From Deltaproteobacteria bacterium (GTDB taxonomy: Bacteria; UBA10199; SPLOWO2-01-44-7), in assembly GCA_016213065.1 (NCBI GenBank), contig JACRBV010000119.1:1-41899 (forward strand): a stretch of 41,899 bases of DNA, in the 5' to 3' direction. The notes under the pieces are model-generated. The model worked only from the letters and a program-made list of their open reading frames with translations, searched no databases and was not told the origin of the DNA. This document shows, one piece after another, positions 594 to 37,975 of the stretch. The number at the start of each line of letters is the position of its first letter. The first letter of the stretch is position 1. The translations under genes and the position numbers were made by a program.

Positions 594-866
594 TTAACGA
601 TGCTTTAATTTTTTTTCTTTGTTCCATACTTTATAACGACCAGCGGCGATTTCCCTTTCCGCGCTTTTGAGCTTTCTTAAAATATCGGGCTCGTCTTCCA
701 GAATATCCAGCGTCTCAAGAATGGCCTCGTATTCTTCAAAAGGGAGAAGAGCGCTCACAGGCTCCCCGTCTTTGAGAATGATAAAAGATTCCCCCAACTC
801 TTGATTACGTCGGGCCAATTCCAGCAATTGCTGTTTGGCTTTTGTGATGGTCAATAATTGTGCCAT
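594..866 (-). CDS. Type II antitoxin, Phd/YefM family
   Basis: 90 aa. MAQLLTITKAKQQLLELARRNQELGESFIILKDGEPVSALLPFEEYEAILETLDILED fits the Phd/YefM N-terminal consensus. Starts 3 nt after the stop of the RelE-like ORF. Confidence 0.8.
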   Translation of the reverse strand: MAQLLTITKAKQQLLELARRNQELGESFIILKDGEPVSALLPFEEYEAILETLDILEDEPDILRKLKSAEREIAAGRYKVWNKEKKLKHR

Positions 867-869
867 AGG

Positions 870-1154
870 TTACCTCCTAAATTTTTCATAAACTTCTTTG
901 CGATGTTGTATTCTCAAAACTTCCACAATAATTTCTTCCTGATGGATTTTATAAATAATTCTGTAAACTCCAACTCGATAAGACCAATAATCTCTCAAAT
1001 CACCTTTTAGCATTTTACCGATATGGGGATCTTGAGAAAGTTTATTTAAACCGTTTGTTAATTGCGTTTTATATTTACCAGTCACACCCTCATAAAAAGT
1101 AACGGCCTGTGATGATAATTTAAGTGTCCACATTGATAGCCATTTTAAATTCAT
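870..1154 (-). CDS. Type II toxin, RelE/ParE family
   Basis: 94 aa from ATG 1154, or 87 aa from ATG 1133 (MWTLKLSS...). The C-terminal DLRDYWSYRVGVYRIIYKIHQEEIIVEVLRIQHRKEVY is the RelE/ParE core motif (RvGdYRiiY....V..i.HRkevY). Confidence 0.8.
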   Translation of the reverse strand: MNLKWLSMWTLKLSSQAVTFYEGVTGKYKTQLTNGLNKLSQDPHIGKMLKGDLRDYWSYRVGVYRIIYKIHQEEIIVEVLRIQHRKEVYEKFRR

Positions 1155-3934: not shown

Positions 3935-4602
3935 TTTCCCCCCGTCCATAGTCCATGGTCCATAGTCCCTTGTCCTTCTCCAAACGCCCATTCCATCTGC
4001 CAATGTTCCTTCCCCGTATTTTTTGTTACTTCTCCAGATAAAACAAACTGTTCCGCCACGGCTGATTTTGTTTTTGGATCGATCAAAATTTCTCCTGTCC
4101 CTTCCAGCGCGATATCCTGAATTCCATAAGCTTTGAGCTTTTGACTCAAATCCCTTTCTTCTTCCGTCAACGGAATAATTTCATCTTTTGCTTTGAGGGA
4201 AAGATGCTCCCGATATTTTTCGAAGCTTGTTCCAAGAATGTTGACGGTATTTTTGTCATCGAATGTTCTTTGCAACGCAAGCGTCGGAAAATCTTCAAAA
4301 ATAAAGGGTGCTGTTTCCTCTAGAGACGGCAAACCCGCAAGATACCATGGAGAGCCGGAAATCAGATGATCCGGGAAAAGGCCGACGCGTTTATTAAAAT
4401 AAATTTCATTTCCTTCGATGCGGGCAGAAAATTCACGCACCTGAGCTCCGCGTTTTTCAATATAGGTGATATGTTTTTGGGCGAGGGCCGGACTATGGAC
4501 CATGGACCATAGACCAAGGACCAACAACAAAAATAGTGATTTTAGGTTTTTAGTCCCTTGTCCATGGTCCATAGTCCATTGTCCTTTCCCATGTCCTTTC
4601 AT
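3931..4602 (-). CDS. Secreted protein of unknown function between tadB and tadC
   Basis: ORF 3931..4728 trimmed to ATG 4602, which forms ATGA with the tadB stop (4599-4602). Its own stop forms ATGA with the tadC start (3931-3934). It has a signal-peptide-like segment, TKNLKSLFLLLVLGLWSMVHSPALA/QK. The first ~37 and last ~12-19 codons are encoded by GGACCAT-type heptad repeats. Confidence 0.55.
   Translation of the reverse strand: MKGHGKGQWTMDHGQGTKNLKSLFLLLVLGLWSMVHSPALAQKHITYIEKRGAQVREFSARIEGNEIYFNKRVGLFPDHLISGSPWYLAGLPSLEETAPFIFEDFPTLALQRTFDDKNTVNILGTSFEKYREHLSLKAKDEIIPLTEEERDLSQKLKAYGIQDIALEGTGEILIDPKTKSAVAEQFVLSGEVTKNTGKEHWQMEWAFGEGQGTMDHGLWTGGK
3944..3978. repeat. Heptad tandem repeat, family G, GTCC orientation (single arm)
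   Basis: GTCCATA GTCCATG GTCCATA GTCCCTT GTCCTTC, five 7-nt units. Lies in the last codons of the 3931..4602 ORF. Confidence 0.85.
4490..4599. repeat. Family G heptad hairpin, cargo-free
   Basis: The left arm 4490-4524 is GGACTAT GGACCAT GGACCAT AGACCAA GGACCAA. The loop is 28 nt. The right arm 4553-4599 is GTCCCTT GTCCATG GTCCATA GTCCATT GTCCTTT ... GTCCTTT. Arms 4490-4521 and 4553-4584 are complementary at 27 of 32 positions by my alignment. Confidence 0.85.
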
Positions 4603-5153: not shown

Positions 5154-6991
5154 GCCAGCCCTCCGAAAATATCTTCAAGCAAAAAGACATCTCCTTCCAG
5201 TCCGGTTATCTTTGAAATTTGCGTGATTTTTCTCTCGCCACCGGACAATCTTGACACCTGAATAATCAGATCAATCGCCGAGGCGATTTGTTCCCGAATT
5301 ACTTTGGAAGGAAGTTCCATACCCGAAAACATCACGAGAGTTTCCAGACGATTCAGCGCATCGCGCGGAGCATTGGCGTGAAGAGTTGTGAGCGATCCTT
5401 CGTGTCCCGTGTTCATCGCCTGCAACATGTCAAGCGCCTCGCCACCGCGGCATTCTCCGATCACAATCCGGTCGGGGCGCATGCGAAGCGCGTTGCGAAC
5501 AAGATCACGGATGGTGATCGATCCCTTCCCTTCGATATTGGAGGGGCGCGATTCAAGCCGCACAACATGGGGTTGACGCAACTGAAGTTCCGCCGCATCT
5601 TCAATGGTGATAATGCGTTCCGTTTCCGGAATAAACGAAGACAAAACATTGAGAAGCGTTGTCTTGCCGGAACCGGTGCCGCCCGAAACAAGAATATTTT
5701 TTCGAGTCCGCACTGCTTCTTCTAAAAATGCAAATGTCTCCTCGCTGGCGGCTCCCATTTGTATCAAATTTTTCGGACCCAAAAGTTCTTTGGAAAACCG
5801 GCGGATGCTGATGACCGGACCATTGAGAGCCAGAGGAGACAGAATAATGTTGACGCGCGAACCATCATGGAGACGCGCATCAACCATCGGAGAAGATTCA
5901 TCCACGCGTCTTCCCACCGGCAACAAAATTCGTTCGATTGTTTTTTGCAAAGAGTCGGCATTCAAAAATTTCAACGGGGTGAGGCGGAGTTTTCCCTTCT
6001 CTTCCACATAAATTGTACCTGCGCCGTTGACCAGAATTTCACTATAGCCGGAATTGGAGATCAATTTTTCCAAGGGACCAAGACCTAGCAATTCACTCAA
6101 CAACTCTTCAAGCAGAGCCGTTTTATCGAGCGACTCTGGGAAAGTGTGTGATTTTGCCGCCATCACCTCTAAAATAATTTTGGAAATCTTTGGTCGGAGT
6201 TCCTTGTCTTCTTTTTCCGCTTTCAGTCCCTTTGCTTCCATTTCTTCCTGAACCGACCGCAGAAGCGCGATCTTTAAAGAGTTCGTGTCTTCGCCGGAAA
6301 TGACTTGTTCAACAGAAGAAGGAGAAGAGATAGCCGAATCAATTCTATCTTCCTGTTTTTGAAGTGCCTCAATCACTTCTTCAACCGAAGAGCCCCGGCA
6401 GGAAATTTTTGAAAAATCGCTGACGGTTTTGTTTGTCAAAAAAGATTGTGCATCCCAATTCCACGCAACCCAACCTGTTTTTTCCAGAGGAAAATAATTC
6501 TGGATAAGCTCATCCGCTTTGCAACGCAATTCCTGCACGAGATTGGAATGGGCCTGCAAAACAAAAAGAAGGCAAAAACTTTTTTCCAACAGTGGAGTTA
6601 TAAAAGGATTCCATCGCGAACCAATATCAGCCACGACATAATCAAAATGAACCAGCAAAGGTTCCAGAAGAGAAAAGGCACTCCGGGGTGTGAAATTGGA
6701 AAGTTCCGATCGCGCCTTTCCCCAACTAAGAGAATCAACGCCGTCGGAATTCTTCAAAAAACCATGAAGCCAATTTTTATCAACGGGCTCGGGAATTTTC
6801 TGCAAATCCCGCAAAGTCCGCCAACCATTTTGAGAAGAAGAAAGACGGCCCAAATCCCCCACATATTCAGGATGCCAATCCAAAAGAAGAACCCTAACCC
6901 CCTGCTTCTTCAATCCCAAAGCCAGCTTAAGCGCAAACGAAGAAGCTCCGACTCCATCTTTGACACCCATGATATTGATAAAACGTGTCAT
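5150..6991 (-). CDS. cpaF: Fusion of a TadZ/CpaE-like ParA/MinD-type domain with the CpaF/TadA secretion ATPase
   Basis: The C-terminal ~400 aa are classic CpaF: [23 protein letters not shown] (Walker A), [48 protein letters not shown]. The N-terminal ~200 aa ([41 protein letters not shown]...DYVVADIG...) look like MinD/ParA with a degenerate deviant Walker A, as in TadZ. Start placed at ATG 6991; the track start at 7009 lies in the A-rich repeat. Confidence 0.85.
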
Positions 6992-6992
6992 A

Positions 6993-7047
6993 GAAAAATT
7001 AAAAATCAAAAATTAAAAACCAAAAACACATATCAAAAATTAAAAAT
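6993..7047. repeat. Family A heptad array (AAAAATY), left arm of 4HB cassette A
   Basis: GAAAAAT TAAAAAT CAAAAAT TAAAAAC CAAAAAC ACATAT CAAAAAT TAAAAAT. The core is AAAAACACATA. Confidence 0.85.
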
Positions 7048-7049
7048 AA

Positions 7050-7430
7050 CTACCTGCGGCCCTTCATTGTTAAAATGCTGGGGGCAAAAATATTGGCAAA
7101 TTCTTGTGTTTCTTTTAACAAGGCATCGCAGGAAACAAGACATTCTTGCGACACAAGACCGCTTTCTTTTAGAAGAGAAAGCCAAAATCGCGATTCATTG
7201 GACGATTTCAACGAATGGTTGAAGTAGTTTTGATAGTCTTTTTTTGAACTGGCGCCTTGAGCTTCAAAATAATTTGCTCCAATGCTTGTACCGCTACGGA
7301 CAAGCTGTCCAGAGATTTCCCGATAAATTGGTTCTTTAGGCAAATATTGCAAAAATTTTATCAAATTCAGGGAGTATTGGTATATTCGCCTTTTGAATTC
7401 CATGTGATGGCTTTGATAATTGTTTTGCAT
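7050..7430 (-). CDS. Four-helix-bundle protein (TIGR02436 / PF05635, 23S rRNA intervening-sequence protein / Avd family)
   Basis: 126 aa. ...YQYSLNLIKFLQYLPKEPIYREISGQLVRSGTSIGANYFEAQGASSKKDYQNYFNHSLKSSNESRFWLSLLKESGL matches the family signature (L.RSgTSIGANy.EA.gA.SkkDf......KE..Et.yWL.LL). An alternative start is ATG 7403. Confidence 0.85.
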   Translation of the reverse strand: MQNNYQSHHMEFKRRIYQYSLNLIKFLQYLPKEPIYREISGQLVRSGTSIGANYFEAQGASSKKDYQNYFNHSLKSSNESRFWLSLLKESGLVSQECLVSCDALLKETQEFANIFAPSILTMKGRR

Positions 7431-7448
7431 AGTTGTTTTTTATATTTG

Positions 7449-7489
7449 GTATGTGTTTTTAATTTTTGATCTTTGATTTTTGATTTTTC
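7449..7489. repeat. Family A heptad array, inverted right arm of 4HB cassette A
   Basis: GTATGTGTTTTTAATTTTTGATCTTTGATTTTTGATTTTTC. Its reverse complement matches the left arm at about 34 of 41 positions, including the CACATA core. It overlaps the last codons of cpaC. Confidence 0.85.
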
Positions 7490-8901
7490 ATGTAATCAAG
7501 ATATTCTCGCATCGACCTCTCCTTAACCATTGCCTCTTCCCTCTTCTGCCACTCTTCCTGAGCCGCCTTGGCGTCGGCCAGTGGATCTGCGATGCGTGGC
7601 AAAACAAAAACTACGAGTTCGGAACGACTCGATTGAAAATCTTTCGAAAGAAAAAGTGTGAAGAGCGCGGAGGAGGTGGCCAAATCTTTGGGCACGCGAT
7701 TGTAAGTCTTTACATCGCGATTGCTCAAAATTCCCCCCAACACCACCGCTTGTCCCAGAGGAAGATACGCCGTGGTGTTTAATGTGTGCGTGTTGATTCC
7801 GCCCTGAATGTGAGGCGAAGCCGAAGAAATGGTCGCGTTGAGTTTTAAATCAATGTCGCTCCCCGCCACAATGGGTTGCGCCTCCACTTTTACTCCCACC
7901 TCTTTGAACTGCACCGACTGCTGGGCATAATAAGGTACCTGCACGCCGCTGAAAAAATTTGCCAAGTCACCGCTTTTGACAAAAAGGGTTGGGTTTTCCA
8001 AAACACGCCCCAAACCTTTTTCCTGAATGAGACGGATTTTCGGCAAAAGATTCATCACAAAACCGATCAGCGATTGTCCCAAACCACCGATGCCTCCACC
8101 ACTTCCACCTAACCCTTCACCGCCACCTTGAGGAAAAGAACCGGGCGCCCATTCAATTCCAAAAGAGCGCAAGGCCGATTTTTGAATCTCCATAAAATAA
8201 ATGTCGAGTTGCACCATCGGTTCTTTTCCGGGATTGCGGTCTCCCTGTTTTACTTCAATGAGGTTGAGACAGTTGGGGTCATAAAGTTTTGCAATCTCGA
8301 ACGCCTTGTTGGAGGCCGATTGGCTAAAAGCCACGCCTTCCAAAATCACACGGTCTCGCACCGAGCGAACCTTGATCCCCGGTGTCGCGATTGCTTTTTC
8401 AATGCGCGAGGTAAGTGTGTCCAGCACCGGTTTTGCAAGTGTCACTTCGTTGACAATTTGCGGATAGCGCGCGGAAAAACTTTGTATCCTTTTATAATCG
8501 GAGGGCGATGGCGCCTCGCCCACAATATGAATGGTGTTGTCTTGTGTGATAAACTGAATCGAAGAGATCGAACCAAACGATTGTTTCGCCTCTCCCAAAA
8601 TTCCTTTGAGGTTGGTGCCGTAAACAGTGACAGGAATGACATCTCTCGCCTCACCCTGTTTATCCCACAGCGTAAGCGTTGTGAAACCCTCACCCTTGGC
8701 GTTCAAATAAATTGATTTGCGGTCTTCCTGAATAAAAAAGTCGGCAACTTTCGGATCCGTCAACGCTACATCGCCGATTTCATATTCTGTAATGAGCGTG
8801 TTTGATTCGCCGCGGGAGAGAGACTGCGCGGGAAGAGACTGTGCCCTTGCCAATAACGGAGTGAAAAATAAAAAATTAAATACCAAAAATGAAAAACACA
8901 T
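7459..8901 (-). CDS. cpaC: Flp pilus secretin CpaC/RcpA
   Basis: Has the N-terminal pilus-formation domain (ITEYEIGDVALTDPKVADFFIQEDRKSIYLNAKGEGFTTLTLWDKQGE). The C-terminal secretin domain reads GLGRVLENPTLFVKSGDLANFFSGVQVPY...VVLGGILSNRDVKTYNRVP...ELVVFVLPRI. Start set at ATG 8901 (MCFSFLVFNFLFFTPLLARAQS is the signal peptide). The 24 track codons upstream are repeat read-through. Confidence 0.85.
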   Translation of the reverse strand: MCFSFLVFNFLFFTPLLARAQSLPAQSLSRGESNTLITEYEIGDVALTDPKVADFFIQEDRKSIYLNAKGEGFTTLTLWDKQGEARDVIPVTVYGTNLKGILGEAKQSFGSISSIQFITQDNTIHIVGEAPSPSDYKRIQSFSARYPQIVNEVTLAKPVLDTLTSRIEKAIATPGIKVRSVRDRVILEGVAFSQSASNKAFEIAKLYDPNCLNLIEVKQGDRNPGKEPMVQLDIYFMEIQKSALRSFGIEWAPGSFPQGGGEGLGGSGGGIGGLGQSLIGFVMNLLPKIRLIQEKGLGRVLENPTLFVKSGDLANFFSGVQVPYYAQQSVQFKEVGVKVEAQPIVAGSDIDLKLNATISSASPHIQGGINTHTLNTTAYLPLGQAVVLGGILSNRDVKTYNRVPKDLATSSALFTLFLSKDFQSSRSELVVFVLPRIADPLADAKAAQEEWQKREEAMVKERSMREYLDYMKNQKSKIKN

Positions 8902-8970
8902 ATCAAAAATCAAAAATTTTTTATTTTTTGTTTGTATTTTTGATTTTTGGTTTTTGATTTTTAATTTTTT
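8863..8970. repeat. Family A heptad hairpin, cargo-free
   Basis: The A-rich arm 8863-8917 (...CCAAAAATGAAAAACACATATCAAAAATCAAAAAT) is followed by the T-rich arm 8918-8970. There is a perfect 14-bp stem, 8904-8917 with 8936-8949, and an 18-nt loop. The cpaC ATG (8901) and signal-peptide codons lie in the left arm. Confidence 0.85.
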
Positions 8971-8972
8971 CA

Positions 8973-9794
8973 TTATTTGCCCCTATACTCCCTGTATCCG
9001 TTGCTCCGCACATGGCCTTTCATTCCCAATACGTCCAACATTGTGGTGGGGCTTAAGGAGAGCGGCTCCTCTTCCAAGAGAGGGCGCAAGGCGAGTGAGA
9101 TTTTGGATTGTGTTTTTGCGAATTCGATTGTTTGCGCTTGTCTCGGAGTAACACAGAGTGTGATTGTTTTTTTCCGCGAAGCAATATTTTCGGAAAAAGA
9201 GCTTCCCGACAAAAAACTTTTCTTGATACTGTTTTTGGCCACCGTTTCCAGCGTCACTTTGGAGCCGAGGTCTTCCCCCACCGCCAACACAAGAATTTTT
9301 TGCGCCACGGTTTGTGTTGTCACAGAGGCGGTGTCGGTGGAATCTTCGATCTCAAATGTCGCCAAAATATCGACAAAATTATTGGGTCGCACCAGCCCCG
9401 CCACGCCGCCTGCATCATCTATATCCAAACTTAACGCCCGCATTCCTTGTGGAATTTTTACCGCCAGCCCCGTAATACTGCTCAAGGCCATCAACTTCGT
9501 TTCTAAAATTTGTTCCCCTTTCAAAATCGGGGCGGCGCTCACAAAACCTACGGCTGACTCCAAAGAAGTCGCCGGACTCGGTTGCAAAAAGCGGCGTGGA
9601 ATTTGTGTTGTTTGAAGCAGTGATTCATCCAAACGCGTGCCCTCCAAAATATCTTTTTTCGCCACAAGCACGGAAATCGGTTCCTCCAGCGAGTTAAACC
9701 GCGCTTCTTTTGCTTTCAAAAAACCCCAAACAAGAAAGAGACTGAAAAAAGCAAACAGGGAGGCGAGCAAAACTGGTTTTTGTTTCCATTTCAT
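8973..9794 (-). CDS. cpaB: Flp pilus assembly protein CpaB/RcpC (SAF domain)
   Basis: MKWKQKPVLLASLFAFFSLFLVWGF (TM) followed by ISVLVAKKDILEGTRLDESLLQTTQIPRRFLQP...AAPILKGEQILETKL, which is the SAF/CpaB pattern. ATG 9794 forms ATGA with the stop of the upstream ORF. Confidence 0.85.
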   Translation of the reverse strand: MKWKQKPVLLASLFAFFSLFLVWGFLKAKEARFNSLEEPISVLVAKKDILEGTRLDESLLQTTQIPRRFLQPSPATSLESAVGFVSAAPILKGEQILETKLMALSSITGLAVKIPQGMRALSLDIDDAGGVAGLVRPNNFVDILATFEIEDSTDTASVTTQTVAQKILVLAVGEDLGSKVTLETVAKNSIKKSFLSGSSFSENIASRKKTITLCVTPRQAQTIEFAKTQSKISLALRPLLEEEPLSLSPTTMLDVLGMKGHVRSNGYREYRGK

Positions 9795-10784: not shown

Positions 10785-11131
10785 AGTGCGTAGTTTCCTT
10801 CCTCTCCGCAAAACGGAATCGGATTGTCCATTTGGGGTTGCCGCCATGCGTCTTGTTTATCTTGGTGCAAAAGATCGAGTTGAACACCATTCAGAGAAAA
10901 ATGAAGTGGGGCGTGGGTTACAATCGGTCGTGGATAAATTAATTGCGATTCCGCCTCAGCTTTGTCCGTTTGATAGAGACTCAAAAGTCTTGACTGTTTA
11001 TGAGCCGCGTAGTGCATCAAGTGTCCCTGCAGAACCCAAATCGCCACGGCCACCAATGCGAGAACAATCCCTACCACCCACGGCAAAATCAAAATAAATT
11101 CGACAAGACCGGCTCCGCGACAGTTTTTCAT
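10772..11131 (-). CDS. TadE-like pseudopilin
   Basis: MKNCRGAGLVEFILILPWVVGIVLALVAVAIW is a TadE-type N-terminus. ATG 11131 overlaps the flp stop as ATGA (11128-11131). Confidence 0.65.
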   Translation of the reverse strand: MKNCRGAGLVEFILILPWVVGIVLALVAVAIWVLQGHLMHYAAHKQSRLLSLYQTDKAEAESQLIYPRPIVTHAPLHFSLNGVQLDLLHQDKQDAWRQPQMDNPIPFCGEEGNYALCSY

Positions 11132-11403
11132 GGGTTGGCCTTTGTCATTTCCTGATTTGTCTTGAGAGTTTCAGTGATATTCGCTCCCAATCCGTTAACC
11201 CCTTCCTGAAATATGGGAATGATGCGTGAAGCCGCGGCCACAAGCCCAATCACAATCACGGCGATCAGAAGCATATATTCCGTGGCGCTCTGCCCTTTCT
11301 GATTCCGCAAAATTCTGCATTCTATTTTAGACTCCGCAAACTCTTCGAGTTTGCTTCGCGGTCTGGCAAAGCCAAACCTTGACTTAGATGATTTGTTCAA
11401 CAT
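11128..11403 (-). CDS. flp: Flp/Fap family type IVb prepilin (long leader)
   Basis: ...RILRNQKG/QSATEYMLLIAVIVIGLVAAAS is the Flp motif (G/xxxxEY plus a hydrophobic helix). A strong SD sits 6 nt upstream of ATG 11403 (AAAGGAGGCAATCATG on the coding strand), implying a 37-aa leader. Confidence 0.75.
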   Translation of the reverse strand: MLNKSSKSRFGFARPRSKLEEFAESKIECRILRNQKGQSATEYMLLIAVIVIGLVAAASRIIPIFQEGVNGLGANITETLKTNQEMTKANP

Positions 11404-11830
11404 GATTGCCTCCTTTAGTTGATAGACTATTTGATAGACTATGGACTACGGACCATGGACTATAGACTTCAGACTCAACGGCTCTGATTAAACCGAACAA
11501 ACATCTTGCAGTTTTTTGGCAGATTAGAGTCAGCTCTTCAAAAAGAGAACTATTTAAAAACAAAAGACGTCTTGAAATCTCCAACAGCGCTTCTGTTTCA
11601 GAAAGAGATCCCCTAGCTATATACAAAAAATTTAAATAGTCCTTTTTATGCTGTCTGCTGGCTCCTTCCGCAATGTTTGCCAACGTGGAAATGGCAGCGC
11701 GTCGCATCTGAGAAATCAAACCGTAACGTTCTTCCTTTGAAAAATTTGAGGTACGAGTATAAATTTGAACCGCAAGGTCGCTGGCTAAAATCCAAGCCTG
11801 TATATTTTTAAAGTTTCTCATCATCGTCAT
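11384..11830 (-). CDS. Four-helix-bundle protein (TIGR02436 / PF05635, 23S rRNA IVS protein / Avd family)
   Basis: ...FKNIQAWILASDLAVQIYTRTSNFSKEERYGLISQMRRAAISTLANIAEGASRQHKKDYLNFLYIARGSLSETEALLEISRRL is the canonical family signature (Q.RRAa.Si..NIAEG....s.k....fl.iA.GS..E). Start candidates are ATG 11830, 11824 or 11821; the track start at 11851 lies in the repeat arm. The C-terminal ~30 aa (YSPWSVVHS...) are read-through of the left repeat arm. Confidence 0.85.
   Translation of the reverse strand: MTMMRNFKNIQAWILASDLAVQIYTRTSNFSKEERYGLISQMRRAAISTLANIAEGASRQHKKDYLNFLYIARGSLSETEALLEISRRLLFLNSSLFEELTLICQKTARCLFGLIRAVESEVYSPWSVVHSLSNSLSTKGGNHVEQII
11424..11477. repeat. Family G heptad array, left arm of 4HB cassette G
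   Basis: AGACTAT (ttgat) AGACTAT GGACTAC GGACCAT GGACTAT AGACTTC AGACTCA. Confidence 0.85.
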
Positions 11831-11866
11831 GGTCCTTGGTCCATTGTCCATGGTCCCTAGTCCTTT
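11826..11866. repeat. Family G heptad array, inverted right arm of 4HB cassette G
   Basis: GTCATG GTCCTTG GTCCATT GTCCATG GTCCCTA GTCCTTT. Its reverse complement matches 11443-11467 at about 22 of 25 positions. It ends 1 nt before the flp-like stop codon (11867). Confidence 0.85.
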
Positions 11867-12160
11867 TCACGGTTTTGCCACTCTCTCCGACAGGTCGTGA
11901 TGCCAAGCAAGAAAAGAAGCTCCTACGCTTCGCCCTCCGTGGCCCGGGTTGTAAAACGCCGCCGCCAGCCAAAAAGCCAGAAGCGCCACGACCAAAACAT
12001 ATTCCACCACGACTCCTCCTTTGTTATTGGGCTTGTCGCCGAAGTCATTCTGAGGAGCGTTAGCGACGAAGAATCTCATTCTGATACTGTTACCAAATTG
12101 GATTCTTCGCCCTTCGGACTCAGAATGACACTTTGTCGACAAACCCTTATTGGAACCCAT
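11867..12160 (-). CDS. Second Flp-like prepilin
   Basis: ...PNNKG/GVVVEYVLVVALLAFWLAAAF fits G/xxxxEY plus a hydrophobic helix. The start is uncertain: ATG 12160 gives a 47-aa leader and ATG 12079 a 20-aa leader. Neither has a clear SD. Confidence 0.55.
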   Translation of the reverse strand: MGSNKGLSTKCHSESEGRRIQFGNSIRMRFFVANAPQNDFGDKPNNKGGVVVEYVLVVALLAFWLAAAFYNPGHGGRSVGASFLAWHHDLSERVAKP

Positions 12161-12334
12161 ATTGATTTTTATCTAGTGCAGGAAAGGGGCCAGCCGGAGA
12201 GGGGGTTATTTTTTAGATGAACTGACGAAGATGCATCAATTCCGTACAGGCCTGCATCAAATCGGTCTTTGTTAATATTATTCCTTTACAGGGCGATAAA
12301 ATATGACTAAAATTTACCCATACGAAGGTAAAAT

Positions 12335-23792: not shown

Positions 23793-23876
23793 AAAAAAAT
23801 TAAAAATTAAAAATAAAAAATTAAAAATAAAAAATCAAAAATAAAAAATTTAGAAATCAAAATTTAAAATCCCCAA
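23793..23876. repeat. A-rich heptad/hexad array (family A-like, no inverted partner) forming the whole atpD-gspE spacer
   Basis: AAAAAAATTAAAAATTAAAAATAAAAAATTAAAAATAAAAAATCAAAAATAAAAAATTTAGAAATCAAAATTTAAAATCC... Nearly GC-free for 84 nt. Confidence 0.8.
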
Positions 23877-26145
<2,269 letters not shown>

Positions 26146-26148
26146 AAA

Positions 26149-27225
26149 TTAGCACTCCCCCCGCACAATTTCCTGCAATTGTTTTGGTGATGGCAACTTG
26201 CCTTTCAGTTTGTCTGGAAGTTTTGATTGGAGGTGATACTCAGCAACACCAATGGGGTTGGACTTGGATTTGAGCGCAAACTCAACTTCCAAAGAGTCCT
26301 TCTCAGCGCAGAGAATAATTCCAATGGAGGGATTATCATGAAGAGTGCGTTCTTTTTCATTCAGCAGATTTAGATAAAAATCCATCTTTCCTGCAAATTC
26401 CGGCTCGAATTGCCCGACCTTCAGTTCCACGGCCACCAGCGCTTTGAGAAAGCGGTGATAAAACAGAAGATCAATGAAATATTCTTTCCGCCCAAGCACG
26501 AGGCGATGTTGCCGGCCTATAAAGCAAAAGCCATAGCCCAATTCGAGAATAAACTCCTTTAACTTCTCGATGAGTCTGTCTTCCAGTTCTCTCTCACTCA
26601 CCTCGCGATGGATGCCGAGGAACTCGAGGCTGTAGGAGCTCTTGAGTGTTTCGTCTGCCTGCTCGGCAAAGCGTTCGGGTAAAGTTGCCGGAAAGTTGTG
26701 AGTTTTCCCCTGCGAAAGAGTGCGTTCATAGGCCTCAGCCTTAATCTGATTGAGAAGGACATTGCGGCTCCAACCGAACCTCGCCGTAGCGCGAAGATAA
26801 TAAAGACGGGCAGGAGGATCTTCCACTTTATTTAGAATCAACAAATGATGGCCCCATGGGATTTCGGCAACGGCCTGTCGCCAAAATTCGGAATTATTTA
26901 TGTCTTTTTCTTCTCCTATTTTGGCGACAGCCTGTCGCCAAAATTCAGGGGAAGAGTACGAGATGAAAAAGCGTTTCATATCCCGCAAATTACGGGGCGA
27001 AAAACCGGTCACTCCGGGAAAGGTGTTGAGCAAGTCTTTTGAGAGCCGCTCAATAACCGATTCACCCCACCCGAGCTGTTTTTGTTTTTCCGTAATCGCC
27101 AAACCGATATCCCAATAAAGAAAAATTAGATCCCGATTAACCGCTCGAACAGCTGAAACACGTGCCGACTGGATGCGGAATTTTAATTGTCCAAGAAATT
27201 CATGATATGCAGTTAACTTGGTCAT
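26149..27225 (-). CDS. PDDEXK-nuclease family protein, DUF1016 / YhcG-like
   Basis: 358 aa with a YhcG-type N-terminal region (...RAVNRDLIFLYWDIGLAITEKQKQLGWGESVIERLSKDL...FSPRNLRDMKRFF...IPWGHHLLIL). The C-terminal nuclease core reads YGFCFIGRQHRLVLGRKEYFIDLLFYHRFLKALVAVELKVGQF. Confidence 0.85.
   Translation of the reverse strand: MTKLTAYHEFLGQLKFRIQSARVSAVRAVNRDLIFLYWDIGLAITEKQKQLGWGESVIERLSKDLLNTFPGVTGFSPRNLRDMKRFFISYSSPEFWRQAVAKIGEEKDINNSEFWRQAVAEIPWGHHLLILNKVEDPPARLYYLRATARFGWSRNVLLNQIKAEAYERTLSQGKTHNFPATLPERFAEQADETLKSSYSLEFLGIHREVSERELEDRLIEKLKEFILELGYGFCFIGRQHRLVLGRKEYFIDLLFYHRFLKALVAVELKVGQFEPEFAGKMDFYLNLLNEKERTLHDNPSIGIILCAEKDSLEVEFALKSKSNPIGVAEYHLQSKLPDKLKGKLPSPKQLQEIVRGEC
26918..26944. 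repeat. 27-bp perfect palindrome inside the DUF1016 gene
   Basis: ATTTTGGCGACAG C CTGTCGCCAAAAT. A degenerate second copy (GGCAACGGCCTGTCGCCAAAATTC) lies ~60 nt upstream. Together they encode the duplicated peptide EFWRQAVA. Confidence 0.8.
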
Positions 27226-27259
27226 TTGATCATAAAGAAATATCGAAGCTTCATTTTTT

Positions 27260-27997
27260 TTAAAGATTTCCCTTCTTCAGCATTCCGGCGGCTTCTTTGA
27301 TTCTGTTTTCTACACTGCCGTCCAAAATCAAACTGCCCAGCTTCAAAATAATTCCCCCCGCAAAATCCTTTTTCAACTCTTCTTTCAAGCTGAGTTTTCG
27401 GCCCGTTTTTTTCTCCAGAATATTTTTGATCTCCGTCTTGTGCGCGGAACTTAAGGGAGACCGGCTGACAATGCCTATCTCGTCAAAATCCACGGAGACT
27501 CTTCCGGCATCCATAGCCCTGATTTCTTCGATGAGTTCACAAGCCAGTTGTTCATCCAGTCCTTTTTCCATTCTTGCACCGACAAAAATACGAACGAGTT
27601 CCGCCCCAACCACCGCCGCCTTGGCTTCCACTTCCATCGCCATTCTCTGTACCGCCTTGGCCTCCAGTTTTTTAGCTCCGGAGACAATCCGGTCGCTTTC
27701 CTCTCTTGCTTTGGCGAGCATTTTTCCGCGCTCTTCTTCCAATTCTTTCTTGGCCTCCTCGCGCTGTCTGCGGACATCCTCGGTCGTCTGTTCCACTTTT
27801 CGGCGGTATTCTTCTTCGGCCTCCTCTATCTTCGTCTTCATTTCCGAGAGGCGCTTTGCATTTTCATCATCAACCAGCTTGAGCCGGTTGACGGCGCTCA
27901 AAGTATCTTTGACCATAAGGCGTCGGAGAAAAATAATGACGACGGCAAACACCAACACCTGTATAAGAAGAAAGCCTGCAATAAATTCGATTGTCAT
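27260..27997 (-). CDS. F-type ATPase b subunit fused to a delta(OSCP) C-terminal-like domain
   Basis: N-terminal TM (IAGFLLIQVLVFAVVIIFL) plus a ~100-aa charged coiled coil, which is b-like. The C-terminal ...IVSRSPLSSAHKTEIKNILEKKTGRKLSLKEELKKDFAGGIILKLGSLILDGSVENRIKE matches the delta C-terminal signature (GG..v.vG....DgSv...L). SD AAGGAG lies upstream. Confidence 0.7.
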   Translation of the reverse strand: MTIEFIAGFLLIQVLVFAVVIIFLRRLMVKDTLSAVNRLKLVDDENAKRLSEMKTKIEEAEEEYRRKVEQTTEDVRRQREEAKKELEEERGKMLAKAREESDRIVSGAKKLEAKAVQRMAMEVEAKAAVVGAELVRIFVGARMEKGLDEQLACELIEEIRAMDAGRVSVDFDEIGIVSRSPLSSAHKTEIKNILEKKTGRKLSLKEELKKDFAGGIILKLGSLILDGSVENRIKEAAGMLKKGNL

Positions 27998-28007
27998 AAG
28001 AGCTCCT

Positions 28008-28220
28008 TCACTTTCCGAATAATTGAAACAAAACCAAAAGGGCGATCACCGCAATGGCTTCCGCGAAAATCAGCGCGATAATCATCGCCATCAAAATTTT
28101 CGGGGCTGAAGAGGGATTTCTTCCAAGCGCACGGATGCTTGAATAACCGATAACGGCAATAACAGCCGAGGGGCCAAGAATCGTTACCAGCATCACCAAT
28201 ATAATGACAAAATTTCGCAC
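28008..28220 (-). CDS. atpE: F-type ATPase c subunit (proteolipid)
   Basis: 70-aa two-helix hairpin with loop RALGRNPSS and a carboxylate in helix 2 (ALIFAEAIAVIALLV). GTG start at 28220 is preceded by GGAGGAATA and overlaps the epsilon TAG by 1 nt. Confidence 0.85.
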   Translation of the reverse strand: MRNFVIILVMLVTILGPSAVIAVIGYSSIRALGRNPSSAPKILMAMIIALIFAEAIAVIALLVLFQLFGK

Positions 28221-28450
28221 TATTCCTCCACAAGCACCACCAGCCGGTTTCCGCGAAACCGCATAATCCCGCCTTTGACATTCAGATATTTTGTGCCGTC
28301 AATAACCATGCGCCCTTTTTTCAGGAGACTCACAACGGGACAATGATAAGGAAGGATTTCGAATTCCCCCGTGTCCCCCTGTAAAAAAGCGCTCTCTGCT
28401 TTCCCTTCAAATAAAACTCTCTTCGCGTTCAGTATGACGATATCAAACAC
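28220..28450 (-). CDS. atpC: F-type ATPase epsilon subunit, beta-sandwich domain only
   Basis: 76 aa. FDIVILNAKRVLFEGKAESAFLQGDTGEFEILPYHCPVVSLLKKGRMVIDG...VKGGIMRFRGNRLVVLVEE fits the epsilon N-terminal domain (...G..gilp.H.p....L..G.......v.gG...v....v.vl). GTG start overlaps the alpha stop by 8 nt. There is no C-terminal helical hairpin. Confidence 0.7.
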   Translation of the reverse strand: MFDIVILNAKRVLFEGKAESAFLQGDTGEFEILPYHCPVVSLLKKGRMVIDGTKYLNVKGGIMRFRGNRLVVLVEE

Positions 28451-29759
28451 TTTTTTTATATTCCTCGATCTGCATCTCTGACAGGCCGTCCAGATTGCCC
28501 TTCATCAGCGCGCTCAAAAAAGCGGCCTGCCTTTTCAAAGAAATGGGCGTGTTTTTGTCCTGCCTTAAAAGGGCCGTGATGGCTTCCCCCCTCTTGATCC
28601 GGCTCTCCGCCTCGGCAGACAGCCCCACTTTGAGTTTTGTCAAGCGCTGTAAATCTCGGTACCGCATGTATTCCAAACGCAGGGGAGATTTTTTCTCCTT
28701 TAATTCCTGCGGCTGGACCAGAGAGCCGATGATGGAAACCGATTGGGCAATGTCCACGGCGGGTTTGAATCCCCCTTTGAAAATATCCGCGTTCAAATAA
28801 ATTTGGCCGTCCGTCATGGAAATGAAATTGGAGGGAATAAATCCCGTCACATCCCCGTGCAGGGTATCCACGATCAGCAAAGAAGTTATGGAACCGCCGC
28901 CGTGCTCCCGATGCAGTTTTCCCGCCCGCTCCAAAAGTTGTGTGTGCAGGTAAAAAATATCCCCCGGATACGCCTCCCTGCCCGGAGGTCTTCCCAGCAA
29001 AAGAGAAAGCTGGCGGTAGCACCACGCGTGTTTCGTCATGTCATCAAAAACAACCAGACAGTCTTGGCCCTTTTGCATGAAATACTCGGCCAATGCTGTG
29101 GCGGTAAAAGGGATCAGATACTGTTCCCCGGCCGGGGAGGCCGCGGGCGCCGCGGCGATGAGGGTATAATCCAAAGCCCCGCGGGCTTTGAGAAGGCCGG
29201 CCACCTTTATTAATGAACTCATGCTCTTGCCGATACAGCAATAAATGCAGATGACGTTTTTTCCCTTCTGATTCAAAATGGCATCCACGGCGATGGTTGT
29301 CTTTCCCGTCATCCGGTCACCCACGATCATCTGCCTTTGACCCTTAGCGATGGGAACGAAGGCATCTATTATGGTTGTTCCTGTTTCAAGAAAGGAATCC
29401 GCCGGTTCGCGGTCCATCGTTTCCGGAGCCTCACACATGACGGGAAAATAATCGGCAGGCTCAATCTTTCCCTTGTCGTCACAGGGTTCTCCCAGCGCAT
29501 TCACGACCCTGCCCAAAAATTTTTCTCCGACGGGAACCTTGAAGGTCTCCGCCCGGCTGAAACAGGCGTCGCCTAAGCGGACTTTGGCTTCATTGCCCAG
29601 AATCAGCGTCAGCGTGTCCGTCTTGGTAAAGCCCATAATCATCCCGGGCACACCGCTTTCAAACGAGACAACCTGACCGTTGAGACACGAATGAAATCCC
29701 GCCACGCGCGCAATATTTTTGCAGACGGCCTTGACTTGTCCCGCTTCTTTGATTTCCAT
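28443..29759 (-). CDS. atpA: F-type ATPase alpha subunit, paralogue 1 (short, 438 aa)
   Basis: ...VPVGEKFLGRVVNALGEPCD..., P-loop GDRMTGKTTIAVDAILNQ (canonical GDRQTGKT), VICIYCCIGKS, LVVFDDMTKHAWCYRQLSLLLGRPPGREAYPGDIFYLHTQLLERAGKL, ISMTDGQIYL. ATG 29759 lies 1 nt after the stop of the upstream lipoprotein gene. Confidence 0.9.
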   Translation of the reverse strand: MEIKEAGQVKAVCKNIARVAGFHSCLNGQVVSFESGVPGMIMGFTKTDTLTLILGNEAKVRLGDACFSRAETFKVPVGEKFLGRVVNALGEPCDDKGKIEPADYFPVMCEAPETMDREPADSFLETGTTIIDAFVPIAKGQRQMIVGDRMTGKTTIAVDAILNQKGKNVICIYCCIGKSMSSLIKVAGLLKARGALDYTLIAAAPAASPAGEQYLIPFTATALAEYFMQKGQDCLVVFDDMTKHAWCYRQLSLLLGRPPGREAYPGDIFYLHTQLLERAGKLHREHGGGSITSLLIVDTLHGDVTGFIPSNFISMTDGQIYLNADIFKGGFKPAVDIAQSVSIIGSLVQPQELKEKKSPLRLEYMRYRDLQRLTKLKVGLSAEAESRIKRGEAITALLRQDKNTPISLKRQAAFLSALMKGNLDGLSEMQIEEYKKSV

Positions 29760-31048: not shown

Positions 31049-31123
31049 GGACCATGGACCATGGACCAACTGCTTTTTCTGGTTTTTAGTCCATGGTCTA
31101 TGGTCCATAGTCCATGGTCTTGT
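31049..31123. repeat. Family G heptad hairpin, cargo-free, intergenic
   Basis: Left arm GGACCAT GGACCAT GGACCAA, then the loop, then right arm GTCCATG GTCTATG GTCCATA GTCCATG GTCTTGT. Positions 31049-31066 pair with 31089-31106, 18 bp with one G-U. The loop begins with AAC after GGACC and ends GGTTTTTA before GTCC, as in the 4490-4599 copy. Confidence 0.85.
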
Positions 31124-34308: not shown

Positions 34309-35164
34309 CTTCAACTGGCTCCTGTTCTTTGGACGCGTTAAGGATGCGCTCTTCCTGAAGCACCATTTCCTGAACGATTTTGCGCGTCACCTCTTCTTTG
34401 TTTTCCATGACCAATTTTTCCAGAACATTGTGGCAAAGGAGCGTTACCTGTCTCGGATAACCCTGCGTATGTCGATGGATCTCTTCCATGGCTTCAGAAG
34501 CAAAAAGCGGTTTCTTTGCGTTGTAGCCCGCCTGCAGGAGGCGAAAATTAATCAGCTCCGTCATCTCTTCCAGCCCAAGGGGATTGAGCATGTATTTCAG
34601 ACTGATCCGGTCCCACAAGTTTTTGAGACGCGAAATTTTCGGCAAAAGCTCCAATTGCGACATGAGAACCAGCTGAAGGATTTTGTGCTCGTTGGTTTCG
34701 TAATTGAGCAGGGTGCGCAAAATTTCAAGAGAGGTCTTACTCAATTTCTGGGCCTCATCAATTAAAAGGACAATCGTCTTTTTTTCCTCCACCCCTCTTT
34801 GAAAAAGATTTTTTTCCAGAATATCGAAGTAATGAACGGTCGAGATGGGCTTTTGTGGAAGCTCTATATGAAAAGATTCCATGAGTTTTTCTAAAAATTC
34901 CTCCTCGGATTTGAAAACCGGATTGAGAAGGATGTGAAAATCGCAAGACGGCTCCTTGGAAAGCATTTGGTAGAGCCTCCGGCTCAGTGTGGTCTTTCCG
35001 GTGCCCACGTCTCCAAGGATGAGACTCAAACCCCGCTTGAGGCGGAGAGCGATTCGCAGGCGATACAGCGCCGCCTTGTGATCCCTCGCTTCATAAAAAA
35101 ACGCAGGATCAGGACTTGTGGAAAACGGCTCGTTCGCAAGCCCCAATACCTTATAATAACTCAT
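34295..35164 (-). CDS. ExeA/GspA/MshM-like AAA ATPase
   Basis: MSYYKVLGLANEPFSTSPDPAFFYEARDHKAALYRLRIALRLKRGLSLILGDVGTGKTTLSRRL... with Walker B IVLLIDEAQKL is the typical ExeA/MshM N-terminal ATPase. There is no peptidoglycan-binding domain. ATG 35164 overlaps the alpha-2 stop as ATGA. Confidence 0.8.
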   Translation of the reverse strand: MSYYKVLGLANEPFSTSPDPAFFYEARDHKAALYRLRIALRLKRGLSLILGDVGTGKTTLSRRLYQMLSKEPSCDFHILLNPVFKSEEEFLEKLMESFHIELPQKPISTVHYFDILEKNLFQRGVEEKKTIVLLIDEAQKLSKTSLEILRTLLNYETNEHKILQLVLMSQLELLPKISRLKNLWDRISLKYMLNPLGLEEMTELINFRLLQAGYNAKKPLFASEAMEEIHRHTQGYPRQVTLLCHNVLEKLVMENKEEVTRKIVQEMVLQEERILNASKEQEPVEDGGR

Positions 35165-36595: not shown

Positions 36596-37975
36596 TCACA
36601 CTTTTTTGTATTGCGTTACGGGACCTCTACCGACTCTTCGCAGGTAACCCTCACCAGTCAGTTTTTCAAGAAGGTATTTCGCGGTCGTGGAACCAATACC
36701 GCATAAGCTTTCGACTTGACGGCGCGAGATCAGTTCGCTGGCTTCAAAATAATCATCCAGTATTTTTTTTGCGTCGCCTTTTGAAGAAAGTTTTTTTTGA
36801 CGATAAAAAATAACCTTAAACTGATCCGAATTAACGATGAATTCGGGCGGCGGATTTCCATTTGCCTTCAATAAATGTTTCATCATGCTTATCCCCTGAC
36901 CCAGTTCCTCTGTTAAGCCCATAATTAACAACGCATGCATGATTTTTGGATTGCGCGAATAATGACGCTTGTCGATATTTTCCAGAGTGATGGTACCCGG
37001 TAAATTTCCGGCACTTATCACTTCAAGTCTGTCCGGATAGATACGGCATTCGTTTTTCAGGCCCGCAATGCGATAATCCCTGTGGGCCACAGCGTTGACA
37101 ATAACCTCTCTTACTGCGTCTTCGGGATATATATATCTTTCCTGCCTTTTTACTCCTCTTACCCCTTCAGTTATCTTGTTGCAGGGTCTTATCAACTCCA
37201 TGAGCCTTTCAAGCAATTTCGCCGCGGGGGCGGACAAATCTTCCCTGTAAGAATACATCCTGCCTTCAACATCGTATTTGACGAACGTAAAATCTCTCTG
37301 TAGCAGAATTTGTTCGTGTTCTTTTCCAAACAAAATGAATGCACCGGCCTTTATTTTGAATTCACCCCGATCGCGTTTCGCCAAACCCATCTTTATCAAT
37401 AATCCCTCTTCATCCAAACCTCCCATGACAGCCGAAACTTTTTTTCGGGCAAGATAGTATTCATCAAGCGCGGTTCGATCTATTACTTCTATTCCGGCAG
37501 GCAGAACGCTTTCTTCGAAAGAAACCTGCGACTTCGATTCGGCAAGTCGCAATAATTCTTCCCCTACTATCCTTTTGTCCTGCGTTCCGACACGAATATA
37601 AGTATGGCCGGATGAAACGGAATGCAAATGTCCGCTTTTTTCCACCGTCAGCTTCAAAACTATTTTTCCTTCCGCCGTTATTTCATTCAAGAAAATCGGA
37701 ATCGGGGGAATACAAACCTCTCTTGCAGTATTTTGTATATTATCCAGCAAAAGCGGCGTTATCTTTACACCGCGTATCTGTCGGTTATCGGTCACTCCTA
37801 TGTACACGCTTCCCCCATCCGTATTGGCAAAGGCCGAGAGAGTTTTTGCCAGCTCCTTTACGCTAATAGCACCTTTAAACTCTTTGAATTCAACTAGATA
37901 TCCCTCTTCCCATGGGATGTTATTTTCTGCCTCACGCATATCTGATTTTATAGTCAATCGGTCAGAATCGGTCAA
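36596..37975 (-). CDS. AlbA_2 (Schlafen-type) + HATPase_c_4 + wHTH protein; putative transcriptional regulator (RecG-C-terminal-like)
   Basis: EGYLVEFKEFKGAISVKELAKTLSAFANTDGGSVYIGVTDNRQIRGV is the AlbA_2/divergent-AAA signature. The middle ...REVIVNAVAHRDYRIAGLKNECRIYPDRLEVISAGNLPG is HATPase_c_4-like. The C-terminal part is winged-helix-like. The track start at 37975 is a TTG; the alternative is ATG 37939. Confidence 0.7.
   Translation of the reverse strand: MTDSDRLTIKSDMREAENNIPWEEGYLVEFKEFKGAISVKELAKTLSAFANTDGGSVYIGVTDNRQIRGVKITPLLLDNIQNTAREVCIPPIPIFLNEITAEGKIVLKLTVEKSGHLHSVSSGHTYIRVGTQDKRIVGEELLRLAESKSQVSFEESVLPAGIEVIDRTALDEYYLARKKVSAVMGGLDEEGLLIKMGLAKRDRGEFKIKAGAFILFGKEHEQILLQRDFTFVKYDVEGRMYSYREDLSAPAAKLLERLMELIRPCNKITEGVRGVKRQERYIYPEDAVREVIVNAVAHRDYRIAGLKNECRIYPDRLEVISAGNLPGTITLENIDKRHYSRNPKIMHALLIMGLTEELGQGISMMKHLLKANGNPPPEFIVNSDQFKVIFYRQKKLSSKGDAKKILDDYFEASELISRRQVESLCGIGSTTAKYLLEKLTGEGYLRRVGRGPVTQYKKV

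Follow-up and report, generated by a model that had tools for sequence, protein, structure and literature searches.

A four-helix-bundle gene between complementary heptad arrays at the head of a tad/flp pilus operon: a candidate mRNA-borne counterpart of 23S rRNA intervening sequences

Contig JACRBV010000119.1 of a Deltaproteobacteria bacterium (assembly GCA_016213065.1; 41,899 nucleotides, analysed as a whole and referred to as the window) carries a tad/flp pilus operon in which a gene for a four-helix-bundle (4HB) protein, here named 4HB-B, is enclosed by two inverted arrays of seven-nucleotide repeats (heptads). All genes around this cassette are located on the minus strand. The operon comprises the flp1 open reading frame (ORF), 4HB-B, flp2, TadE-like, TadG-like, RcpC/CpaB and secretin genes, and continues with the 4HB gene of a second cassette (cassette A), a CpaE-CpaF fusion, TadB, an unknown secreted ORF and TadC. 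The features at its head are, in sense direction:

12178..12192, minus strand: sigma-54-like -24/-12 element (TGGCCCCTTTCCTGC, 2 mismatches) upstream of flp1, candidate operon promoter
11867..12160, minus strand: flp1 ORF with the motif GG/VVVEY, probable start at 12079 (MRFF...)
11826..11866, minus strand: 5′ arm, units (sense) GGACTAG GGACCAT GGACAAT GGACCAA GGACCAT, period 7 in Tandem Repeats Finder (TRF)
11384..11821, minus strand: 4HB-B gene, 145 aa, PF05635 (1.5e-31) and TIGR02436 (3.1e-30)
11419..11477, minus strand: 3′ arm, units (sense) GTCTGAA GTCTATA GTCCATG GTCCGTA GTCCATA GTCTATC, then a 12-nt duplication
11408-11413, minus strand: flp2 Shine-Dalgarno sequence GGAGGC, 6 nt beyond the 3′ arm
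11401-11403, minus strand: flp2 ATG, read from the sequence
11384..11403, minus strand: 20 nt shared by the 4HB stop region and the flp2 start, a candidate translational coupling site
11128..11403, minus strand: flp2, Flp-type prepilin candidate with the motif KG/QSATEY, weak Flp_Fap match (E=0.042)

The arms were found to be tandem heptad arrays that complement each other. TRF reported period-7 arrays at 11437-11468 (left, continuing to 11477) and 11828-11863, and on the plus strand the 3′ arm reads as a chain of six GAC cores (11437-11474) and the 5′ arm as a chain of five GTC cores (11832-11862). The best inverted pair, 11443-11467 with 11839-11863, is 25 nt long and 88% complementary (22/25), which agrees with a first-pass annotation, made from the sequence alone, that had described a 4HB gene between complementary heptad arrays; a longer pair, 11437-11467 with 11832-11862, covers 31 nt with 77% complementarity. 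Smith-Waterman alignment of both arms scored 35, whereas 5000 pairs drawn at random from the window with equal geometry gave 12.9 +/- 2.8, 9 of them reaching 35. The fold of 11405-11880 on the minus strand was calculated at -135.8 kcal/mol (z = -3.09); its minimum free energy (MFE) and centroid structures both contain the arm-arm stem, and the 485-nt element has 34 long-range arm-arm pairs in its predicted RNA fold. By prediction, the ends of the element are therefore terminal inverted repeats forming a long enclosing stem. The first-pass annotation had read the entire left arm as heptads; this applies to the inner part, while the outer part (11419-11442) consists of 12 nt that are duplicated exactly (TTGATAGACTAT x2). 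Its placement of the arms relative to the neighbouring genes was confirmed by the sequence and the ORF coordinates: the flp1 stop codon (11867-11869) lies 1 nt from the right arm (11826-11866), the flp2 Shine-Dalgarno sequence and start are located as described, and the 4HB ORF, which contains the 3′ arm within its reading frame, continues across the left arm (..EVYSPWSVVHS..) and shares 20 nt (11384-11403) with flp2. The last units of the 5′ arm yield a Shine-Dalgarno-like AAGGA sequence adjoining the 4HB start codons.

Family membership of the 4HB-B product was clear, with 109.2 bits for PF05635 (cut-off 33.8) and 104.6 bits for TIGR02436 (cut-off 24). In thousands of genomes, members of this family bear no annotation beyond 'four helix bundle protein', and to our knowledge no function has been assigned to the 'IVS protein' (intervening sequence protein) family since 1993. 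The longest ORF covers 11384..11851, and the conserved start (MRNF...) lies at 11821, so that the start previously annotated at 11830 had to be corrected; the protein database contains an identical 145-aa product beginning with MRNF. Residues ~1-120 represent the four-helix-bundle core and the last ~25 the translated 3′ arm and flp2 ribosome-binding site. In the AlphaFold2 monomer model, the predicted local distance difference test score was 89.6 overall, >92 for residues 1-120 and ~58 for the tail. This C-terminal tail is predicted to be disordered and looks like a by-product of reading through the 3′ arm. The top Foldseek match of the model was 2GSC (XCC0516) with a target-normalised TM-score of 0.94-0.95, a root-mean-square deviation of ~1.2 Å and 39% identity (phmmer 7.3e-19), and 2RLD (BT_0352) was matched with a target-normalised TM-score of 0.83-0.89; as modelled, 4HB-B thus has a four-helix-bundle fold like these two proteins. 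The closest solved structure, 2GSC, was deposited as five chains, and according to Lin et al. 2006, as cited in PMC4990558, XCC0516 is a homopentamer. From 2GSC, 2RLD and the accessory protein structure 4DWL, a homopentameric ring may be inferred for 4HB-B, the model itself being monomeric.

To see how far this arrangement extends beyond the window, a 4HB-B profile was used, which found 547 relatives in one-genome-per-species contigs, and the best 80 loci were analysed. These B-type loci belong to Omnitrophota, Planctomycetota, Verrucomicrobiota, Acidobacteriota and others. For each locus, the upstream 165 nt and the reverse-complemented downstream 165 nt were aligned by Smith-Waterman, with displaced windows as controls: the median score was 32 against a control mean of 16, and 66/79 loci exceeded all of their own controls. 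Arrays were detected as at least four cores spaced by 7-8 nt, for which our own base-frequency estimate gives less than one chance match in 395 kb. A GAC array was present within 200 nt upstream in 73/80 loci and a GTC array within 200 nt downstream in 68/80, both in 62, and the opposite polarity was found in just 3 (upstream) and 2 (downstream). The arms are nearly always built of 7- or 8-nt units whose core is invariant, GAC upstream and GTC downstream; as consensus of a unit, GAC-Y-A-N-R was obtained, with its complement downstream, and the commonest array length is five units (29/80). Arms of the same locus were more complementary than arms of different loci (35.3 vs 22.3), a comparison blurred by a few very long arrays which pair with almost anything. 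The cassette type is thus general across several phyla, its polarity is fixed, and it is apparently undescribed; the first-pass proposal of a general repeat-hairpin-plus-4HB element type instead of a coincidence is borne out by these counts.

The second 4HB gene of the operon has its own type of repeat:

6985..7500, minus strand: cassette A, 4HB gene 7050..7430 between inverted A-rich heptad arrays

The two 4HB proteins of the operon are only 20% identical. Relatives of the cassette A protein with 60-72% identity occur across WOR-3, Omnitrophota and Patescibacteria, and among 72 usable metagenome loci of this type, flank complementarity exceeded all controls in 67 (median 42.5 vs 16.8). Their arms are A-rich heptads, AAAAAYN upstream and the complement downstream. 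In 204 kb of A-type loci only one GAC array, of four units, was detected. The presence of two repeat families in the window is thus not arbitrary: each 4HB subfamily carries its own repeat type, even within a single operon.

The history of the 4HB-B copy was followed in seven orthologous loci (L001, L002, L084-L087 and L089; six distinct genes, the L085 and L086 proteins being identical), which derive from related metagenomes and from metagenome-assembled genomes with the label Deltaproteobacteria. An eighth locus, L003, encodes the L002 protein on a contig that ends inside the gene and is not counted among the seven. In all seven loci, 4HB-B is found at the same place, followed by a flp-like gene of 62-72 aa and then TadE and the further genes. 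Identity to the orthologues is 65-75% for 4HB-B, 43-51% for RcpC, 37-47% for TadG, 21-40% for TadE and 64% for the secretin, so that 4HB-B exceeds the first three of these neighbours in conservation and is no less conserved than the secretin. Between the window and its orthologues, pN of 4HB-B was 0.15-0.22 at a saturated pS of 0.69-0.84, and over all orthologue pairs pN was 0.04-0.25 and pS 0.5-0.9 (saturated), with dN/dS of 0.05-0.16 where computable. These comparisons indicate that the copy is old, inherited at the head of the tad/flp operon and under purifying selection; it is not a recent insertion, which corrects the term 'placed' in the first-pass annotation. Cassette A, by comparison, is absent at the secretin-CpaF junction of L002, where both genes overlap directly.

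The heptad arms are kept in every orthologue, with 28-44 long-range pairs in the MFE structures of all 8 elements. In L002, both arms have switched to CG-type spacers, as seen in GTCCGTA/GTCCGCA of one arm and ..CTACGGA of its counterpart. Neither the 3′ arm nor the flp Shine-Dalgarno sequence interrupts the reading frame in the seven orthologous loci, where the stop lies 8 nt past the flp ATG; the overlap in the window is 20 nt and not 8 because of the 12-nt duplication in the 3′ arm. Since GTCCATA-like heptads have an in-frame TAG every 21 nt, an open frame needs particular unit variants, and variants with TGG at the expected TAG positions were seen in the 3′ arms. Among B-type homologues, a hydrophobic C-terminal extension of ~30 aa (..GKLSKVVATVTSLIVIGLMRWSGG.LSVV) is conserved in P0041, P0046, P0063, P0079 (Pyrinomonadaceae), P0080 (Verrucomicrobia), P0083, P0103, P0107 and P0111, and ends in a tail resembling translated heptad repeats. 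This extension is transmembrane-like and may be a membrane anchor or a read-through by-product.

With respect to transcription, B cassettes are co-directional with their upstream neighbours in 65/75 and with their downstream neighbours in 61/79 cases, and A cassettes in 62/66 and 65/67 cases; a cassette opposite to both neighbours was found once per set. In four orthologues, the 5′ arm is immediately preceded by a good -24/-12 element of the sigma-54 type, with the predicted +1 position 0-7 nt from the first GAC heptad, so that in these four genomes the predicted RNA 5′ end would be the first paired heptad. L084 has, like the window, a weaker sigma-54-like site upstream of flp1 instead. The candidate at 12178..12192 gains support from the clear sites at the equivalent place in orthologues, and the cassette appears to belong to the 5′ region of the pilin transcript. 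Scans for terminator-like and sigma-70-like sequences around the element gave results no better than chance. The name flp should be taken as provisional for both ORFs. The synteny of flp2 with TadE, TadG, RcpC, secretin and CpaF is conserved, a G-x4-EY prepilin motif is present in both flp1 and flp2, and TadE, TadG, RcpC, secretin, CpaE/F and TadB/C follow downstream. For Pfam Flp_Fap, flp2 reached 14 bits (cut-off 32) and flp1 had no match, and a counterpart of flp1 at the same place was found in L084 only. Both are thus candidates below the Pfam threshold, named by motif and synteny in the case of flp2 and by the motif alone in the case of flp1. In the 5′ part of the flp1 ORF, at 12040-12130, an inverted repeat is located (gtcattctgag...ctcagaatgac, inner part cgaagaatc...gattcttcg), the translation of which is 79% identical to L001 2667-2783, a stretch with no flp gene beside it; rather than coding sequence, the inverted repeat may represent a small repeat of its own or an RNA element.

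Heptads of both types also occur in the window outside the two cassettes:

31049..31119, minus strand: GGACCAT-type hairpin, gene-less and intergenic, RNA fold -40.9 kcal/mol
8864..8970, minus strand: A-type hairpin, gene-less, translated as secretin signal peptide
4490..4584, minus strand: GGACCAT-type hairpin, gene-less, 31-nt loop, RNA fold -64.2 kcal/mol
3944..3975, minus strand: GGACCAT-type orphan arm shortly before the start of TadC, sole possible partner the arm at 4490-4523

The first-pass annotation had named heptads scattered at random irrespective of 4HB genes as an outcome that would speak against the element type. This applies in part, as gene-less GGACCAT hairpins do exist and the repeats are not confined to 4HB genes, yet the association is very far from random. 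The gene-less hairpins have strong predicted folds. The loops of the gene-less hairpins and the full elements have only short junction motifs in common, GGACTAAAAAC on one side and GCAGTTG on the other, which hints that the gene-less hairpins might be deletion derivatives of full elements. In addition, the B-locus flanks contain 61 additional arrays. The extent of the unit itself can be seen from two paralogues, L043 and L047, on the same contig (CAWELO010000011.1, Verrucomicrobiae), whose ORFs are 95% identical. The identity of ~85% over ~830 nt stops at the outer array ends, and the flanks beyond are unrelated; therefore, the duplicating unit is the ORF plus its arms. On this contig, the 4HB copies are 3.3 kb apart and arrays of up to 21 heptad/octad units occur several times per kb, and in the element a conserved leader of ~95 nt, which includes a TTGACA motif, separates the start codon from the 5′ array.

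Several of the arrays are translated. The first ~45 codons of the secretin gene (7459..8973, minus strand) are the A-type hairpin 8864-8970, of which the A-rich arm encodes a Lys-rich n-region (MKKLKIKNQKSKIQTKNKK) and the T-rich arm a Phe/Leu-rich h-region (..FSFLVFNFLFFTPLLARA/QS). The orthologous L002 secretin gene has a GAC-type hairpin (6641-6742) at the same place (MKRGPWTMDHRPW..ILLLFVFLVHSPLSTVHG/QS), so that the signal peptide of this gene is encoded by a different repeat family in each of the two genomes. Also in L002, the leader peptide of a TadE-like prepilin (MRSNINGLRTTDYGLRTGRG/SAVTEF) is specified by an orphan GAC heptad array (5665-5695). It seems that cleavable N-terminal leaders tolerate heptad arrays. 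The ORF at 3976-4600 (minus strand) between TadB and TadC has no Pfam or NCBIfam match; its signal-peptide-like N-terminus derives from the 4490-4584 hairpin and its C-terminus enters the GGACCAT arm 3944-3975. The three arms around this ORF (in the order GAC, GTC, ORF, GAC) could allow alternative pairings. A further A-rich heptad array of ~10 units in one orientation is located at 23795-23869, where it separates the ATP synthase beta gene from the start codon of a GspE/PilB-type ATPase gene, with no complementary partner nearby.

The closest known counterpart of the cassette is the intervening sequence (IVS) of 23S rRNA. S23p (PF05635) ORFs are described for 23S IVSs of Coxiella burnetii and Leptospira (PMC4990558; Ralph and McClelland 1993 as cited there). 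The Coxiella burnetii IVS has 428-444 nt with the S23p ORF in the loop and a terminal stem of 28 bp, and three GACAGAT heptamers precede the ORF start, at the first of which RNase III cuts in vitro (PMC4990558). The cassette shares with it the element size (~430-480 nt), the PF05635 protein in the loop, the terminal-repeat stem of ~28-35 bp and the tandem GAC-core heptamers directly before the ORF start, and like 23S IVSs it would be transcribed from a host promoter. In contrast to these, it lies between protein genes of a pilus operon and not in 23S helix 25 or 45, and the 4HB-B ORF runs through the 3′ arm and overlaps the next gene; also, 4HB-B is under strong purifying selection, whereas the Coxiella ORF is decaying and apparently untranslated. 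Rfam at gathering thresholds yielded no match of any kind, and hence no rRNA, in the whole window, and universal 23S/16S motifs were absent from the window and all 170 loci, with rRNA operons often missing from metagenome-assembled contigs. Membership among the 23S rRNA IVSs thus fails on location, as the element lies between flp-like ORFs and no rRNA was found. While 23S IVSs are excised by RNase III, such cleavage is proposed here by analogy only.

Based on these data, we give a probability of roughly 55% to an account in which the cassette works as an RNA hairpin that is processed and couples the translation of its neighbours. It would be transcribed within a sigma-54-driven pilin mRNA, and the 3′ arm, once made, would pair with the 5′ arm to form a stem of ~30-35 bp from which the 4HB cistron is looped out. 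Thereby, the 4HB ribosome-binding site would be hidden, with AAGGA and the start codons at the stem base, and the flp1 stop, or the RNA 5′ end, would be brought beside the flp2 ribosome-binding site. Ribosomes loaded before the 3′ arm is made would read through and melt this arm and terminate on the flp2 start, coupling the two genes. By analogy with 23S IVSs, the stem would be a likely RNase III substrate, and cutting would separate the flp1, 4HB and flp2 RNAs; it might thereby uncouple the two pilin genes, as put forward in the first-pass annotation.

A number of points weigh against this account. Co-transcription, folding in vivo and cleavage are all inferred. Sigma-54-like matches in the window are as frequent as expected by chance, so the 12178..12192 site is weak by itself, and the stems are imperfect with a complementarity of only 77-88%. 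Among mismatches in aligned B-type arms, G:U was found 35 times vs 70 times for A:C (p = 8e-4), which is the wrong direction, and the A-type arms were neutral (87 vs 89); the G:U test gives no support for selection on a sense-strand RNA stem. The polarity rule reads identically on both strands and therefore does not discriminate between an RNA-level and a DNA-level role. An invariant GAC with variable spacers is unexplained by a plain stem or RNase III and points to a sequence-specific reader, and a plain stem also leaves the subfamily-specific repeat type unexplained. The G:U counts, the invariant core and the subfamily-specific repeats thus speak against an account purely at the RNA level and favour, or at least permit, arrays that serve as binding sites. 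The parallel to Coxiella is incomplete, as the protein there is thought not to be made and is here under selection.

A second reading, possible although clearly less probable, is that the arms are mainly putative binding-site arrays, in which a pentameric 4HB protein or a host factor would read the spaced GAC on DNA or single-stranded nucleic acid. The arrays would then resemble terminal inverted repeats of mobile elements or a wrap-around RNA operator of the trp RNA-binding attenuation protein (TRAP) type, and the complementarity of the arms would be a by-product of inverted duplication and concerted evolution. TRAP is a ring-shaped homo-oligomer which binds RNA with (G/U)AG repeats separated by short variable spacers near a ribosome-binding site. 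As a works-like analogy, the putative ring oligomer and the array of conserved triplets beside a ribosome-binding site match this; the folds are unrelated, binding by 4HB proteins is hypothetical, and the repeats, unlike those of TRAP, also form a complementary second array. This reading would explain the invariant core with variable spacers, the polarity rule (73 and 68 loci vs 3 and 2), the missing G:U excess and the specific heptad type of each protein subfamily even within one operon. The commonest array of five units (29/80) would suit 2GSC, deposited as five chains and described as a homopentamer, and the fold is shared with Avd, which is part of a ribonucleoprotein complex of diversity-generating retroelements (DGRs; 4DWL, 8UB7). 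Also consistent with it are the L043/L047 identity (~85%, ~830 nt) ending at the outer array ends and the gene-less hairpins, which resemble non-autonomous derivatives. However, nucleic-acid binding by this subfamily is putative, the 4HB protein has no catalytic domain, and the 4HB-B copy has stayed in place in the seven related loci. The 4HB gene is the only ORF between the arms, i.e. no transposase was found there, and by eye no direct repeats indicating target-site duplications were seen flanking the arms. Within a locus the complementarity includes the spacers and not the cores alone, L002 has matching spacer changes in both arms (GTCCGTA with TACGGA), and the coincidence of the predicted transcription start with the first heptad fits an RNA role. 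Both the RNA hairpin and the binding arrays could be realised together, since the two accounts are not mutually exclusive.

It is improbable that the heptad hairpins are a generic intergenic repeat which stabilises or punctuates operon mRNAs, comparable to repetitive extragenic palindromic (REP) sequences, short tandemly repeated repetitive (STRR) sequences or the small transposable elements with inverted repeats known as MITEs, with the 4HB gene as an unrelated passenger that tends to land, or survive, in hairpin loops. Such a repeat would account for the gene-less hairpins and orphan arms of both types at other junctions of the window, the 61 further arrays in B-locus flanks, and the RcpC-secretin junction, which carries a hairpin of A type in the window and of GAC type in L002. 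Tandem heptamers are known from intergenic regions, such as GGGAATC in Xanthomonas and GGGGAYT in Nostoc (PMC4692102) and TAACTGA in Beggiatoaceae, cyanobacteria and Bacteroidetes (PMC4679880). They resemble the arms in their 7-nt tandem units and mostly intergenic location near the 5′ end of the adjoining ORF, and those of Xanthomonas are often convergent pairs able to form stem-loops, as found here; in contrast, their unit sequences are others, and these papers make no link to a 4HB gene or a matching protein. By analogy to MITEs and REP sequences, full gene-plus-inverted-ends elements coexist with short gene-less hairpins of the same ends, but neither a transposase nor a target-site duplication was seen, and the ends are tandem heptads and not unique inverted repeats. 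Tandem heptamer arrays of the STRR type were reportedly described for cyanobacteria by Mazel et al. in 1990. The passenger model does not fit the association in 73/80 B and 67/72 A loci with a strict match of subfamily and repeat type, and leaves unexplained that two repeat types in one genome each accompany their own 4HB subfamily only and that ORF and arms are duplicated jointly.

The identity of 4HB-B as a DGR Avd accessory protein is effectively refuted: the bAvd fold is alike (4DWL, TM-score ~0.85; 0.83-0.86 target-normalised for 4DWL and 8UB7), and PF22296 and NF033474 gave weak matches, but NF033474, the Avd-specific hidden Markov model, reached 19.3 bits, far below its cut-off of 80, sequence identity is ~10%, neither the ORFs of the 42-kb window nor the called genes of the orthologous loci yielded a reverse transcriptase, and no template/variable repeats are nearby. 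The Avd entries hold several chains (four of 4DWL were matched), and 8UB7 is a nucleic-acid-containing complex with reverse transcriptase. With respect to a phage origin, a scan of viral contigs with the B-type profile yielded one weak relative with 41% identity.

Further observations concern other parts of the window. ATP synthase genes (two alpha-like, gamma, beta, delta-like) at 23877-29759 and 35161-36588 are mixed with type II secretion/type IV pilus genes, which is an unusual operon mosaic, and among them are a YhcG/DUF1016 PDDEXK nuclease gene (26149..27225) and a Schlafen/AlbA_2 gene (36596..37975). At 37995-41828 (minus strand), an ORF of 1277 aa without Pfam match contains 252-nt tandem repeats in ~3.5 copies, each with 45-nt sub-repeats, and at 594-1154 (minus strand) a ParE toxin/Phd-YefM antitoxin pair is encoded.

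PF05635 genes have been noticed within cas loci (PMC3936711), and no report linking PF05635 genes outside rRNA to flanking heptads or describing subfamily-specific arms was found in the literature, of which subscription journals were poorly covered. The PF05635 family, 23S IVSs and intergenic heptamers were known; what appears to be new here is an IVS-type 4HB hairpin cassette that would reside in an mRNA. As a tentative and, taken as a whole, rather doubtful generalisation, PF05635 proteins might read their own flanking heptads sequence-specifically with one subunit of the pentameric ring per heptad, and the module might propagate as a unit, leave dependent gene-less hairpins and control processing and translation of its host operon; the 23S rRNA IVS would then be a special case of a larger, mostly mRNA-borne family. 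For genome annotation, the results mean that heptad hairpins are read as N- or C-terminal extensions of real proteins, including signal peptides. The cassette connects rRNA intervening sequences, DGR Avd and the puzzling excess of heptamer repeats between bacterial genes. For the 'IVS protein' family, subfamily-specific inverted heptad arrays, co-directional placement in operons and long selection at a single site provide handles, by which heptad binding, RNase III processing and downstream translational coupling become directly testable hypotheses.

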